Position numbers and translations under genes: made by a program. Below are positions 28,395-45,200 of a DNA stretch of 64,000 nucleotides, piece after piece (within the stretch, counting starts at the first letter, position 1; the number at the start of each line of letters is the position of its first letter). The notes under the pieces were generated by a model. It did no database searches. It had not been told where the DNA came from and was given only the letters and a program-made list of their open reading frames with translations. The stretch comes from a virus. The stretch covers positions 64,001 through 128,000 of the IMG/VR virus record IMGVR_UViG_3300020469_005214; one strand, given 5' to 3'.

Positions 28395-28503
28395 AAGATA
28401 TTCTGACCCAAATAAATAAAAAAGCCCTTGACAGGGGCAAATATTTATATATAACTGGTAGACTAATAAATAAATCTTAACAAAAAATATTTAAAAATAA
28501 AAT

Positions 28504-28785
28504 ATGATTGATCGCAAAAGAATTCTAAAATCCTTTTTCCAAGTTAAAAAAACTTCTAAATATAGTTGGTATGGAGTGCCAACCTGCAACGAAGATAAAA
28601 AACAAAGAGCAAAAAGAAAAATCGAATTGTCGCCAAACGATATTTTAATTCCATCTTTTAATAATAAATATTGGAATAAAATTAACAAAAAAGGTGCGGT
28701 AAATATAGAAATACCAGATAGTGAACTGGTTAGGGTTGATCGCCCCATTACTTTTGATAATGTCTATTATAAATACGGATATTGA
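28504..28785 (+). CDS. hypothetical protein
   Basis: Downstream of TTGACA promoter at 28428. Confidence 0.5.
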   Translation: MIDRKRILKSFFQVKKTSKYSWYGVPTCNEDKKQRAKRKIELSPNDILIPSFNNKYWNKINKKGAVNIEIPDSELVRVDRPITFDNVYYKYGY

Positions 28786-33818: not shown

Positions 33819-33894
33819 GCATCCTTAGCTCAATCGGTAGAGCAGTTGACTTTTAATCAATTGGTTCTGGGTTCAAGTCCCAGAGGATGTACCA
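33819..33894 (+). tRNA. tRNA-Lys(UUU)
   Basis: Cloverleaf; anticodon loop CTTTTAA; GTTCAAGTCC T-arm; encoded CCA. Confidence 0.95.
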
Positions 33895-33900
33895 CATTTA

Positions 33901-33977
33901 GCCCCTATCGTCTAGTCTGGTTAGGACACCGCGTTTTCATCGCGTCAACCACGGTTCGAATCCGTGTAGGGGTGCCA
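33901..33977 (+). tRNA. tRNA-Glu(UUC)
   Basis: Cloverleaf; anticodon loop TTTTCAT; GGTTCGAATCC; encoded CCA. Confidence 0.92.
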
Positions 33978-36413: not shown

Positions 36414-37430
36414 ACTAAATAATAAGAGACACTTTAAATTAAATATCTAAAGATATATTAGTAATAAAAGGAAGAATTTAATTTTAAAACCTATTCTAAG
36501 TGACTTATAATCAGCTACAAATAATCCGTCAAATAAACCAATGGTATAACTAGCTTTTTAAGGTCTAAAGCCTTGTAGAGCTTTATATACAAATATAACC
36601 TTTTACCTCAGTAAAATAGCATAATAAGATAAAATAAATAAGTAGAATATATAAAGAAATAATATATATAAATATACATAGAATAAATAAAAAAATAATA
36701 GAACTAGATAGGTATTTTTTGCTTGTAGGGGATTATCCAGTTTATATTTTTTAAATAAATGGATTTTTTTTGCAAAAACCCTATTTTTTTTTATAAATAA
36801 TGCTTTTTTTCTATATTCTGCCTATAATTATAGTATTGACATGATCAAATAAATACTTACAATTTCAAATAAAAGTTTTTTCATCCCAAATAAATGAATA
36901 AAAAAAAATAATAAAAAAAAATATTTTTAAATAAATAATATAAAAAAAGTTTTTATTTTCCCAAATAAGCGTTTTATTAATAAGGCTCTATAGTTCAAGG
37001 GATAGAACAAGACACTTCTAATGTTTAGATCTGAGTTCGAATCTCGGTGGAGCTACCAAAAAAAATAAAAGTTTTTTTTCGCGAAATAAATGTATAAATT
37101 TTTATAAAAAAAAATAAAAGTTTTTTCGGCCTAAATAAAGGCGCATATAAAAAAATAAAAAAAAAGTTTTTTTTGCCCAAATAAATGTCCATATAAAAAA
37201 ATAAAATAAAAAAAAATATTCTTGACAATGTAGCAAAATAAAAAAAATAAAATAAAAAATTTTTTTCTTGACAAGATAAAAAAAATAAAATAAAATAAAG
37301 GTTTTATCTGCCCAAATAAAGGTGCAGGCGTATATAAGAAAAAGTATACTATATAAAGTATATAAAAAAGTATTATATATAGGCGGATAATTTAATTTGT
37401 TTTTTTTTATTTTTTTTTAAAAAAAGCTTG
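36414..37430. repeat. very AT-rich non-coding region with repeated AAAG-TTTT-N8/9-AAATAA units
   Basis: Copies near 36871, 36945, 37067, 37116, 37162 and 37297. Confidence 0.7.
36984..37058 (+). tRNA. tRNA-Arg(UCU)
   Basis: Cloverleaf; anticodon loop CTTCTAA; GTTCGAATC; encoded CCA. Confidence 0.93.
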
Positions 37431-41638: not shown

Positions 41639-41950
41639 ATGAACAAAAACCTAAAAACTAACTTCGACAAACTTAAATTCTCAGAGCTATTCAAGGTGTC
41701 TTCTACAGAGCCACATACAATGACTTTGGATGAACGCCAAGAACTGGGAGGTTGGCAAAAAATATTCGAGTTTCCCAACGGCTTTGGAGCTTCTGTAGTC
41801 GTGCACGAATTTTCTTATGGCTTAGAACTTGCTTTGCTTGACAAAAGCCATAATATAGTTCAACACCCAGAAATTACTAATGATGTCGAAGGCTATCTCA
41901 ACACTGACAGTGCTTGTGATATACTTCAAAAAATTGCAAAATTAGCATGA
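41639..41950 (+). CDS. conserved phage hypothetical protein
   Basis: F.FPNGFGASVV....SYG..ELA.L...DV.GYL pattern. Confidence 0.65.
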   Translation: MNKNLKTNFDKLKFSELFKVSSTEPHTMTLDERQELGGWQKIFEFPNGFGASVVVHEFSYGLELALLDKSHNIVQHPEITNDVEGYLNTDSACDILQKIAKLA

Positions 41951-42008
41951 TCTTGTGTTCATACGTGTAGTCGTCGTCTCGCCTTGTGGTTAGGGCGAGG
42001 CGACATTT
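41951..42008 (+). ncRNA. candidate sRNA: single-stranded seed plus 13-bp hairpin with GTGGTT loop
   Basis: Hairpin 41973-42004; loop complementary to the AACCAC leader motif. Confidence 0.5.
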
Positions 42009-42031: not shown

Positions 42032-42101
42032 GGGGGTGTAAGGGTTTCGACTTAAACTATTTAGTTTGAACACGGTGGTTCAACTCCACCCACCTCCACC
42101 A
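42032..42101 (+). ncRNA. mini-tmRNA (tRNA-like domain only)
   Basis: 5' GGGGGTG..GG.TTCGAC; 3' GGTTCAACTCC...CACCTCCACCA; G3:U alanine identity pair; 6-bp hairpin replaces the mRNA-like domain. Confidence 0.8.
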
Positions 42102-42283
42102 TTTTATTCTTTCCTAGGACGCCCTTGAGATTGGGCCAAACGAAGAGCCGTAGCGTTAATACGGATCGCAATGGGGATTTGCGTGAGGTAGTGAGAAGAA
42201 CTCTGCCATCTCTATTTTTTATTTTATTTTTTTTTGAAAAAAAAGTATTGACTTAGCCAAACGACCATTCATAATGCAAAACC

Positions 42284-45200
42284 ATGAAGACAATACAACT
42301 ATCACTACACCGCTCCGAGGACGAACCTTTCCTTCAAAAATGGGAAGTCGCCCGCAAATGCGTTTTCTCTGCTAAACTTAATGCAGAACATATCGATTAT
42401 CCAAATGCTCCAACAAAACTAGCTGAGCTTTTGTTTCACGTTACCAACGCACCATTTGAAATGTTGGATAAAGTGCATGAAAAAATTCTTCTAGCTCTAT
42501 GGGAGAATTGTAAAAAACAAGATACTTTTTACTCGACAAGCGTTGGCGATGTCGTTAAGATTCACGATCATATTAGTGGAGAACGCACTACACTTATGTG
42601 CAAGTCAGTTGGATGGGAGGAATTATAATGGATACAAAAACAATACCTAATGAGGGACGATACGATTATTCGATCAGCCTAGTAGATAGCTTTAACAAAC
42701 AAATTAAAGAAGCCTATGAATACGAAAAAAATCACGCATACAAAGAATACGAAAGTAAAATTATATCGTATCGAATGGGGGTGGAGTGACGGCTCTGATG
42801 ATTCATCGCCTCCAACTCTAGTAGCAGTTGGTGCTAATCCCTATGAAGTTTGGGGCGATGAATACGAATGGTCAGACAACCAATTTGGGTTTGATAACGA
42901 CATACATTACTGGTTTGAGGATATGGACGAACTGAAGTCTTATTGCGTAAATGACGGCAAGGGCGAGTGGTATATTAAATCATACGAGTTTGTTCGAGAA
43001 CATGATCTAGCAGAAATTTAACATATAAATTAATATTATGCCAACAGAAAAACTAACCGAACCACAGTTTCTTAGAACAAAAGAGATAACTGACACCATC
43101 ATGGATGATATCCGTGTTGTTTTAAAAAAATATAAAAAAGATATTCCTATGTGGGATAATGAAAATATAAATTATAATTTAGAGAGTCATATTCGCGACC
43201 ATGTTAGAATTGATGTAGTGCGCGAGGTTATGAAACAATATAATGTATACATATAATTATTATGAGCGGAGCACAAGAGATAATAGAACGAAACTTTGAA
43301 CAACTCTGTATTGATACACTCGTTCCCTTGGGTATGAAACACGCAAGTGAAGAAAAAGAAAAATTATATAAATCTATAAGAGAGTTTGTTTATGAGTTTA
43401 TGTATGATTCATCGACATTAGAGGGCGTTGAAGAGGAAGCTGAGTATGTTCCTAACTATTATGATTTAAAATGGAGACCTTAACATGGACGAAAAATACA
43501 AAAAAGAAAGTCTTGACTTAGCACTTAGATGGTTTCAAGATAACGATGTTCCTGCATACGAGGACGATGGAAGTATATACGTTCAAGCAGGCAGGGATGC
43601 CGATGTCCAGATTTCAACATCTGAGATTGATTACAGAGCAGATTTACAAACAGATTATGAGCGCGAAAAACAGTCACTTAACAATTAGGGAAGAAGTAAC
43701 CGAGCAAGGTCTTGCCGTTCCCGTATCTTTACTATCTTTAGATGGAGAAGATGCCCTTTATATCCAGGACACGCCCTACTTAAATATTGATTGCGAGTAT
43801 TGCTCTGATCATTGTTTAGATGATAGTGGCTCGAACTTATTAGTTAAAATTACTGATCCTACTCAATTTGATGGAGACGGAAAACCTTTGAAAAATAGGC
43901 TTGCATTTGCTATTAATGCAGATTACGATTGGAACTGATGAAAAAACCATATAAAATACCATGTGCATGGGAAGTTGTTGCAATGGCAGAAGTAGAAGCG
44001 GAATCTTTGAATGAAGCCATTAGTAAAGTAGAAGATCACGATTTTCCATTGCCAATAGATAACTATTATGTAGATGACTCTTTCGAAATCGATAAGGATT
44101 GGCTTGAGAACTTATATGAAGAAGAATATGAAAAAACTAACTGATTACTGCTTAAATAATAAACTAGTCGCCACAGAAAAAGATGTTGAGTCGGCATTTA
44201 TGATTTGTGTTTGTGCAACTATATCCTTGACATTGATATTAATATCAACAATAATAGAATTAAATTAATTAATATTATGACACACTTAGAACCACAAATT
44301 GGATGTCTCTCAGATGATATCATTGAAAAATTAGATAAAAAAATGGAAGAGCTGAAAGGAATCGGTCTATCTGATATTGATATCTATATTATAAACCTTG
44401 CGATATCACTTAGTCAAAAAAAAGTCTTGACTTAAGTTTTCCCTCAACCATACTGGCTTTATGAAAATTACACTAAAAAAGATAGAACACTCGGAGTTTC
44501 AATCACAAGAAACTAACTGTTTCAAGGCTGACCTATATGTTGATGGAAAGCCTTTTGCCATTGTAAGTAACGATGGTATCGGTGGATGCGATATGCACTA
44601 CAAACACCCTAAGAATCCTCAAACTCCTCAAGAGTATCACGAGGAATTAGATAGTATTTTTAAGTGGCACAGAGAAAACACTACTTATAAAACTGAGTTT
44701 GACGACAGGGGATATAGCGAAGGTAGCTTGGATATGACAGTAAGTGATATCTTGGTAGATCATTTAATTACTAAAGATGTTAAGAAGCTAATGTCTCGCT
44801 CTATGATTGTATTTGAAAAGGGTCAAGAAGGCTATTACAAGTTTGGAAAAAAGAAGTATGGAATAGTTCAAGAGACTATGGATGCTTTTAAGGCTAAGCT
44901 TGACAAATGGTATGGAGATAAGTGGGTATGTATAAACGATATGCCTATTGACGAAGCAGTTGCTTACTATAAAACTAATTAAAATTATGACTACAGAAAA
45001 CAAAATACCATACGGACTAGTTGAACATTGGCTAGGCTCAGATGCACAACTAGAAGAAGCAATTGATATCTTAACTGATATCGCAAACGGAGATTATGCT
45101 CCTAGTCTATTAAAAGAAGACATATTAAGTCTAGAAGATTCTTATGAAGAAGCATTAGACTGTATGGATGAAATACATTCCCCAAGTTAAGATGCCAACA

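Follow-up and report, generated by a model that had tools for sequence, protein, structure and literature searches.

A phage-encoded RNA consisting of the tRNA-like domain of tmRNA without the mRNA-like domain, and its relatives in viral contigs

Positions 42032-42101 of the window (plus strand), by which we mean the whole 64,000-nucleotide stretch of DNA analysed here (positions 64,001 to 128,000 of the IMG/VR virus record IMGVR_UViG_3300020469_005214), encode a 70-nt RNA, referred to below as a mini-tmRNA, that was confirmed to be the tRNA-like domain (TLD) of tmRNA lacking the mRNA-like domain. Trans-translation is the main bacterial ribosome-rescue pathway, and the tRNA-like domain of tmRNA is the part that AlaRS, SmpB and EF-Tu recognise. 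The observations described here establish, besides the identity of the RNA, the structural and selective constraint upon it, the invariance of its alanine identity, its largely phage-borne spread and its dependence on host factors.

Identity and architecture of the 70-nt RNA

The Rfam tmRNA model (RF00023) matched exactly positions 42032-42101 with 49.6 bits and an E-value of 1.5e-16 for the whole window, above the curated gathering cut-off of 47 bits, and this locus was the only tmRNA match in the whole 141,669-bp record. The alignment spans model positions 1-374, with 22 nt standing in place of 326 positions, and the D-loop analogue and T arm of the 70-mer were aligned to the consensus with high posterior probability. 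A sequence-only reading of this DNA had described the locus as a tmRNA tRNA-like domain without the mRNA-like domain; every element that it had listed is present where it had placed it, and the Rfam alignment supports the description. Of the two programs that it had proposed for checking the assignment, Rfam thus agreed and ARAGORN did not, the latter calling neither a tRNA nor a tmRNA, and no tag, at 42032-42101.

The 5' strand of the acceptor stem, GGGGGUG (42032-42038), holds the G3 of the G3·U pair and forms seven of seven pairs with 42091-42097, and the 3' segment (42091-42101) comprises the strand CACCUCC, which contributes U70, followed by the discriminator A and an encoded CCA (42098-42101). 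The stemless D-loop analogue (42039-42051) ends in GG-U-UUCGAC, aligned to GGaUUCGAC of the Rfam tmRNA consensus, and is followed by a closing hairpin (42052-42069) of 6 bp (42052-57 with 42064-69) and a 6-nt loop, which stands for helix 2b, the pseudoknots and the tag ORF. The linker ACAC (42070-42073) occupies the 3' side of the helix-2a base, where the family consensus is GGAC and where Rfam aligns the final AC alone, and the T arm (42074-42090) consists of a 5-bp stem (42074-78 with 42086-90) and a 7-nt loop, UUCAACU; all of these parts lie on the plus strand.

The elements of alanine identity, namely a 7-bp acceptor stem, G3·U70, discriminator A73 and an encoded CCA, are all found in the 70-mer. 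Like bacterial SsrA (RF00023), it has the G3·U acceptor, the GG..UUCGAC motif, the T arm and the ACCA end, but it has no mRNA-like domain, resume codon, tag ORF, stop codon or pseudoknots, and helix 2 is cut to the 6-bp hairpin. What characterises TLD-only or CDS-less tmRNAs, a complete domain with a short closing helix, a length of 60-85 nt and no tag ORF, is what we found here.

Other assignments of the locus were rejected. A canonical tRNA-Ala is inconsistent with the ARAGORN result and with a central loop of 6 nt rather than 7, and the Rfam tRNA model was not reported at the locus, the overlapping clan match scoring below that of tmRNA. A two-piece (permuted) tmRNA was rejected given that the pieces lie in the standard 5' to 3' order with no match to the permuted families, as was an attP fragment of a host ssrA gene, given that the 5' and 3' halves are both there and that a Phage_integrase search of the record found no integrase.

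Folding energy was less informative. The thermodynamic z-score of the 70-mer, -1.46, is weak alone, and the minimum free energy (MFE) fold, at -22.1 kcal/mol, is better by 1.5 kcal/mol than the family-type fold (-20.6 kcal/mol); in the MFE fold part of the D-loop region is paired with the 3' side of the hairpin, so that the D-loop GG is sequestered. In L174, the contig carrying the closest relative, the closing hairpin is part of the MFE fold. Because the folding energy was unconvincing, the case for a structure beyond chance rests on the Rfam score and on the comparative evidence that follows.

A family of TLD-only RNAs with invariant alanine identity

IMG/VR was scanned with a pattern that required UUCGAC to be followed, after a gap of 8-38 nt, by a T arm and UCCACCA, and a match was counted as a family member when a perfect 7-bp acceptor stem was found 5-11 nt upstream of UUCGAC. 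At least 91 viral loci (91 of the 119 matches listed) share this architecture, representing at least 76 distinct sequences of 62-84 nt, and the other listed matches were ordinary tRNAs or 3' tmRNA fragments. The members fall into a size class of about 62-72 nt with a single closing hairpin, as in the window RNA, and one of about 76-84 nt with an internal branch. The survey of homologues that the sequence-only reading had called for therefore yielded relatives in number, both these loci and the 16 more closely related ones considered below, and it suggests that TLD-only RNAs form a large, diverse and mostly unannotated family found mainly in phage sequences.

A covariance model, R1, was built from family sequences, and 80 members were aligned over 16 modelled pairs. 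Standard pairs occupied 99.5% of the cells as against 71.1% in shuffled alignments, and the covariation score was 0.708 as against 0.128, with none of 500 shuffles as high; when the pairing partners were slid by 1-3 columns the score was at most 0.10. Changes on both sides were seen in 12 of the 16 pairs. While this alignment was itself fitted to the model, T-stem pairs 1-3 had been left free by the search pattern, and in exact register 224 of 228 of their cells were paired (shuffle mean 101), with changes on both sides, which provides independent support for the model-fitted covariation. The sequence UUCGA is invariant in the family, but was also demanded by the search pattern. The window RNA scored 63.3 bits with R1, its sequence having been in the seed; outside the seed, the L174 RNA scored 63.8 bits and the TLD-only RNA of mycobacteriophage DS6A 53.8 bits, a score that places the latter, as judged by sequence, in the same family.

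Genes for tRNAs lie within 4 kb at 29 of the 91 listed loci, some of which are inside arrays of 20-33 tRNAs. All-against-all clustering of the ORFs within 4 kb of the 91 listed loci revealed no conserved protein partner, the largest cluster of neighbouring proteins covering 13 loci, all in near-identical phages. At two loci (L046 and L085) ARAGORN did call a tmRNA, a 324-nt standard form and a 499-nt permuted form, and both were rejected as artefacts that reuse the 3' half of the mini-tmRNA, with the tag reported as 'Tag not identified'. Fragments holding the 3' end of tmRNA alone also occur in phage contigs (e.g. L006, L009, L057, L082 and L324). Among cultured phages, blastn with the 70-mer and with a consensus-like member found no new carrier; the matches were to the T arm only, in tRNAs, in full Streptomyces phage tmRNAs and in an Acinetobacter phage 3' fragment.

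The same pattern was applied to bacteria, with one genome per species, and 2 of the 120 bacterial matches listed were mini-tmRNAs, located in a Butyrivibrio metagenome-assembled genome (L319, contig of 1.6 kb) and in a Pseudanabaenaceae assembly (L320, contig of 17 kb). Both genomes also hold a full-length tmRNA with different acceptor and T stems, and the mini RNAs are thus additions rather than recent copies of the host tmRNA; given the short contigs beside a full tmRNA, they probably lie on phage or prophage contigs binned with the host. These scans, which are samples of the matches listed and not a census, suggest that the mini-tmRNA family is largely phage-borne.

The features associated with alanine identity are the most constant part of the family. 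The pairs G1-C72, G2-C71 and G3·U70 are invariant in 80 of 80 aligned members, and, very diverse though their stems are, none of the 80 lacks G3·U, the discriminator A or a usable 3' end. The search pattern had fixed U70, and an A at position 3 would also have passed the pairing filter; position 3 is nevertheless G in all 76 distinct sequences listed, and A3 never occurs. The G3·U pair is also present in the RNAs of DS6A, L311 and L313, all found without the U70 constraint, and in a control scan with a base other than U at position 70, which gave 53 matches in all, the matches whose acceptor stem was paired proved to be ordinary tRNAs with the exception of one TLD-like type (L141, L145 and L172). 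The absence of A3, the agreement of the three unconstrained RNAs and the recovery of tRNAs by the control scan together indicate that the invariance of G3·U is not circular, and on sequence comparison the alanine identity of the family appears to be under selection. This invariance argues that charging matters, and hence that the RNA acts on the ribosome and does not just soak up SmpB.

The exceptional TLD-like RNA, which lies at L141:3131-3209 (minus strand) and also occurs in L145 and L172, has U3-A70 and lacks GG in the D-loop analogue. It scored 50.7 bits with the family model, with several weaker tRNA-like matches around it in L141, and was the sole non-alanine-type variant seen.

The phage locus and the alleles of its relatives

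The 141,669-bp record has a completeness of about 77% and carries its genes all on the same strand; it comes from a large, AT-rich, uncultured marine phage of roughly 140-180 kb that encodes a ribonucleotide reductase, a DnaE-type polymerase, a DnaB-type helicase, a UvsX-like recombinase and TerL. No close cultured relative was found by megablast of 8 kb around the locus or by tblastn of the DnaE-type polymerase and TerL (identity of 31% at most). The record contains no gene for SmpB, an RF-1/ArfB domain protein, Pth or a CCA-adding enzyme, and the RNA must therefore rely on host factors. Three tRNA genes called by ARAGORN, for Lys-UUU, Glu-UUC and Arg-UCU, lie upstream on the same plus strand at 33819-33977 and 36984-37058; all three encode CCA, and each is followed by a T or A run.

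The ORF upstream of the mini-tmRNA is followed by a 14-bp hairpin, identified by folding (41973-42004, plus strand), and the same hairpin occurs in the related contigs L174, L175, L179 and L187; its loop region contains UUGUGGUUAG, and its arms show compensated changes in the relatives. On the other side, the next small gene (42284-42628) is preceded by a sigma-70-type promoter (42248-42275, plus strand; TTGACT-16-CATAAT, 10 of 12 matches), and an equivalent promoter 3' of the RNA site is also present in relatives. The sole candidate for a promoter upstream of the RNA, at 41898-41925, was rejected as not conserved in L174. Pfam searches of the flanking small ORFs gave nothing informative.

Directly after the mini-tmRNA, and separate from it, comes another element (42110-42215, plus strand), structured, conserved and about 105 nt long. 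It behaves as an independent module: L175 (at about 2850-2960) and L310 have it without an adjoining mini-tmRNA, and L174 has the mini-tmRNA but not the element. Covariation is seen in its first stem (GCCC/GGGC, GUCC/GGAC, AGCUC/GAGCU), its MFE is no better than that of shuffled sequences, and Rfam gave no match to it. In L310 (minus strand) the ORF whose leader holds the element contains a sequence resembling region 4 of sigma-70. The idea that the element is a detached mRNA-like domain or tag ORF was rejected on the grounds that it occurs without an adjoining mini-tmRNA, that its differences are not synonymous and that it has no Rfam match.

Through the downstream ORF we found 14 related contigs with 75-85% amino-acid identity, and in these the cargo between the hairpin and the next promoter varies, consisting of the mini-tmRNA, the 105-nt element, both, or nothing: L174 has only the mini-tmRNA and L175 only the 105-nt element, L179 and L187 have nothing at the site, and L176 and L178 have a tRNA further upstream. 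Two relatives that lack the mini-tmRNA at the site have a sister mini-tmRNA elsewhere, at a distance of 2.5-3.3 kb on the downstream side of their ORF 42284-42628 homologue. The sister RNAs of L311 (G003:C1:9119-9188; 57.7 bits) and L313 (G001:C1:1202-1264; 43.9 bits) both have U-A in place of C21-G332 with the G·A tandem kept, and neither encodes CCA. In two further relatives, whose contigs are incomplete, no mini-tmRNA was seen.

No relative that was examined has a full-length tmRNA. The sequence-only reading had called the mRNA-like domain 'deleted', which implies a local deletion and does not fit a short form that characterises a large family, and it had named relatives with a full tmRNA and random deletions as the observation that would speak against a functional RNA; these were looked for and not observed.

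When metagenomes and viral contigs were scanned specifically for this sub-lineage, 15 further loci emerged, several of them on TARA Oceans scaffolds, which makes the lineage a marine one, and the 16 related loci carry six alleles in two groups. In tmRNA the base of helix 2a consists of C21-G332 plus tandem G·A pairs, with UUCGAC opposite GGAC; in the window RNA this arrangement is not found, in that ACAC replaces GGAC and G19·A334 alone remains. GGAC is the Rfam consensus and is present in 54 of the 76 family members listed, and ACAC is confined, among those 76, to the window RNA, so that the domain had been called 'intact' too strongly for this allele. Group 1 comprises the window, L174-type and L330-type alleles, all with ACAC, in which the C-G and A·G of the family give way to C×A and A×C mismatches, owing to C at 42051 and C at 42071. 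Group 2, of the L311 type, in which L311 itself reads AGAC, keeps the helix-2a base, with U-A for C21-G332 followed by A·G and G·A pairs. Given that ACAC is common to three alleles, it is a stable feature and not a fresh lesion; the C changes of group 1 do make possible an alternative fold that hides the D-loop GG, and ACAC at the helix-2a base may weaken the predicted binding of SmpB. As the two groups differ precisely at this base, their comparison would test the need for the motif.

The closing hairpin also varies among the six alleles in ways that keep its pairing, with C-G changed to U-A at positions 26-33, with U·G, C-G or U-A at positions 22-37, and with A-U or G·U at positions 25-34. 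These pair-preserving alleles, together with the family-wide covariation, uphold the earlier proposal that the RNA is functional rather than decaying. CCA is encoded only in the window and L174-type alleles; in the other four the discriminator A is never lost, and a U-rich stretch comes after it.

Known systems and possible modes of action

RNAs of this kind are already known. Mycobacteriophage DS6A is listed as having a 'TLD only' tmRNA (Hudson, Lau and Williams 2014, PMC4131195; PMC11915505; tmRNA Website tmID 11587), encoded at about 28478-28560 of JN698994 between gp33 and gp34, and the sequence-only reading had overlooked it. Both are phage RNAs reduced to the tRNA-like domain: each has the G3·U pair and a T arm, its D-loop analogue forms no stem, and a short helix closes the domain. 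The DS6A RNA is, however, GC-rich and about 80 nt long, encodes no CCA, belongs to a phage of an actinobacterial host and falls under the Rfam tmRNA cut-off, whereas the window RNA has 70 nt, an encoded CCA, an AT-rich marine phage as its carrier and ACAC instead of a GGAC-type helix-2a base. An SmpB decoy and a tag-less alanine donor are the functions that have been suggested for the DS6A-type molecule (PMC4131195, PMC11915505). A similar molecule, in the words by which these two papers cite Mao et al. 2009, 'strongly inhibits tmRNA, perhaps by titrating SmpB' in E. coli, and, as cited in PMC4131195, inhibition was seen whether or not the molecule was chargeable; by that account charging would not be required for inhibition in E. 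coli. DS6A was the only published phage TLD-only example found in the literature searched, and among open-licence papers and preprints we found none describing the breadth of the family in phages, so that, while the kind is known, the family itself is under-described.

Tag-less tmRNAs also occur in organelles, where the mitochondrial tmRNAs of jakobids and oomycetes (RF02544) and the plastid CDS-less forms of Mallomonadaceae, about 65 bp long (PMC11915505), likewise consist of the tRNA-like domain without a tag frame. The tag-less mitochondrial tmRNAs co-occur with imported SmpB (PMC11915505), and their being kept together with SmpB suggests rescue without tagging. The organellar forms replace the only tmRNA of their compartment, whereas the phage RNA is added to a host that presumably has a full tmRNA, and in such a host it would act as a competitor. 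Full-length phage tmRNAs, as in the Bxz1-type mycobacteriophages, in Bacillus phage G and in the two-piece ssrA of Melnitz and pelagiphages (PMC4131195, PMC9004378), reflect the same manipulation of trans-translation by phages through an ssrA homologue, but they keep the tag ORF and pseudoknots, neither of which the window RNA has.

We consider it fairly probable that the RNA is an alanine-charged mimic that depends on SmpB, vies with the host's own tmRNA for stalled ribosomes and attaches alanine with no degradation tag. The RNA would probably be made by read-through from the upstream early gene and be cut out like a tRNA, after which host AlaRS would charge it with alanine by way of the G3·U pair and the A73-CCA end. 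Host SmpB and EF-Tu would then bind it, as in established tmRNA biology, and it would enter ribosomes stalled at the 3' ends of broken mRNAs, competing for them with host tmRNA. The nascent chain would be accepted on its alanine with no tag template provided, and, for want of a resume codon and a tag ORF in the RNA, the product would escape the ssrA degradation tag. Either the ribosome would then be freed by other host factors, giving rescue without tagging, or it would stay blocked, and trans-translation would be inhibited. The proximity of tRNA genes was counted for tRNA-like handling of the RNA; the ACAC base, the MFE fold that hides the D-loop GG and the charge-independent inhibition in E. 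coli were counted against the charged mimic.

A competing view is that the RNA only titrates SmpB, and with it the recruitment of RNase R, away from tmRNA, with charging and entry into the ribosome being irrelevant. In its favour, the UUCGAC and T-loop elements are kept, but if charging were irrelevant one would not expect all 80 members to conserve G3·U, the discriminator A and a usable 3' end, and in group 1 the changes fall on the base of helix 2a, within the conserved core that lies between the D-loop analogue and the T arm, making this view an unlikely one. Somewhat less doubtful, and to be entertained tentatively, is the proposal that the RNA is an active alanine-charged rescue RNA serving as a phage counter-measure, which frees ribosomes stalled when host or abortive-infection nucleases cut mRNA or tRNA and leaves products unmarked for ClpXP or bearing short alanine tails added over repeated rounds; were this the case, the GGAC and ACAC groups would represent adaptation to different host SmpBs, or else SmpB-independent entry.

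The RNA might also work outside ribosome rescue, as a decoy or shield that absorbs or blinds host defences recognising or cleaving tRNA or tmRNA, the possible targets being anticodon nucleases, systems with SmpB-like domains (CoCoNuTs) and the regulation of RNase R. Binding of tmRNA has been predicted for defence systems that have SmpB-like domains (PMC11090510), one phage anti-CRISPR uses tRNA and tmRNA fragments (PMC11662646), and the RNA is swappable cargo in an intergenic hot spot of early genes; the absence of an anticodon loop for anticodon nucleases, the lack of any conserved defence or anti-defence gene nearby (no protein neighbour recurs in more than 13 of the 91 listed loci) and the invariant alanine identity, which this proposal leaves unexplained, nonetheless render it quite improbable. 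We give hardly any weight to a non-functional remnant, whether a decaying phage tmRNA or an attP-type piece of a host ssrA integration site, even though the phage contigs do contain fragments holding the 3' end alone and the helix-2a base of the window allele is off-consensus, for here neither half of the domain is missing and a clean hairpin closes them, covariation is seen across the family, the three group-1 alleles differ by pair-preserving changes only, and neither an integrase in the record nor a full-length tmRNA in the relatives was found.

Thus, the RNA probably lets the phage interfere with host tagging and with the rescue of stalled ribosomes. Given that ARAGORN misses mini-tmRNAs or wrongly lengthens them, phage surveys based on this program will misreport them. 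The family provides a natural series for asking what the minimum size of a working tmRNA head is, and a 70-nt phage RNA that diverts trans-translation would be a cheap and compact tool for host takeover.
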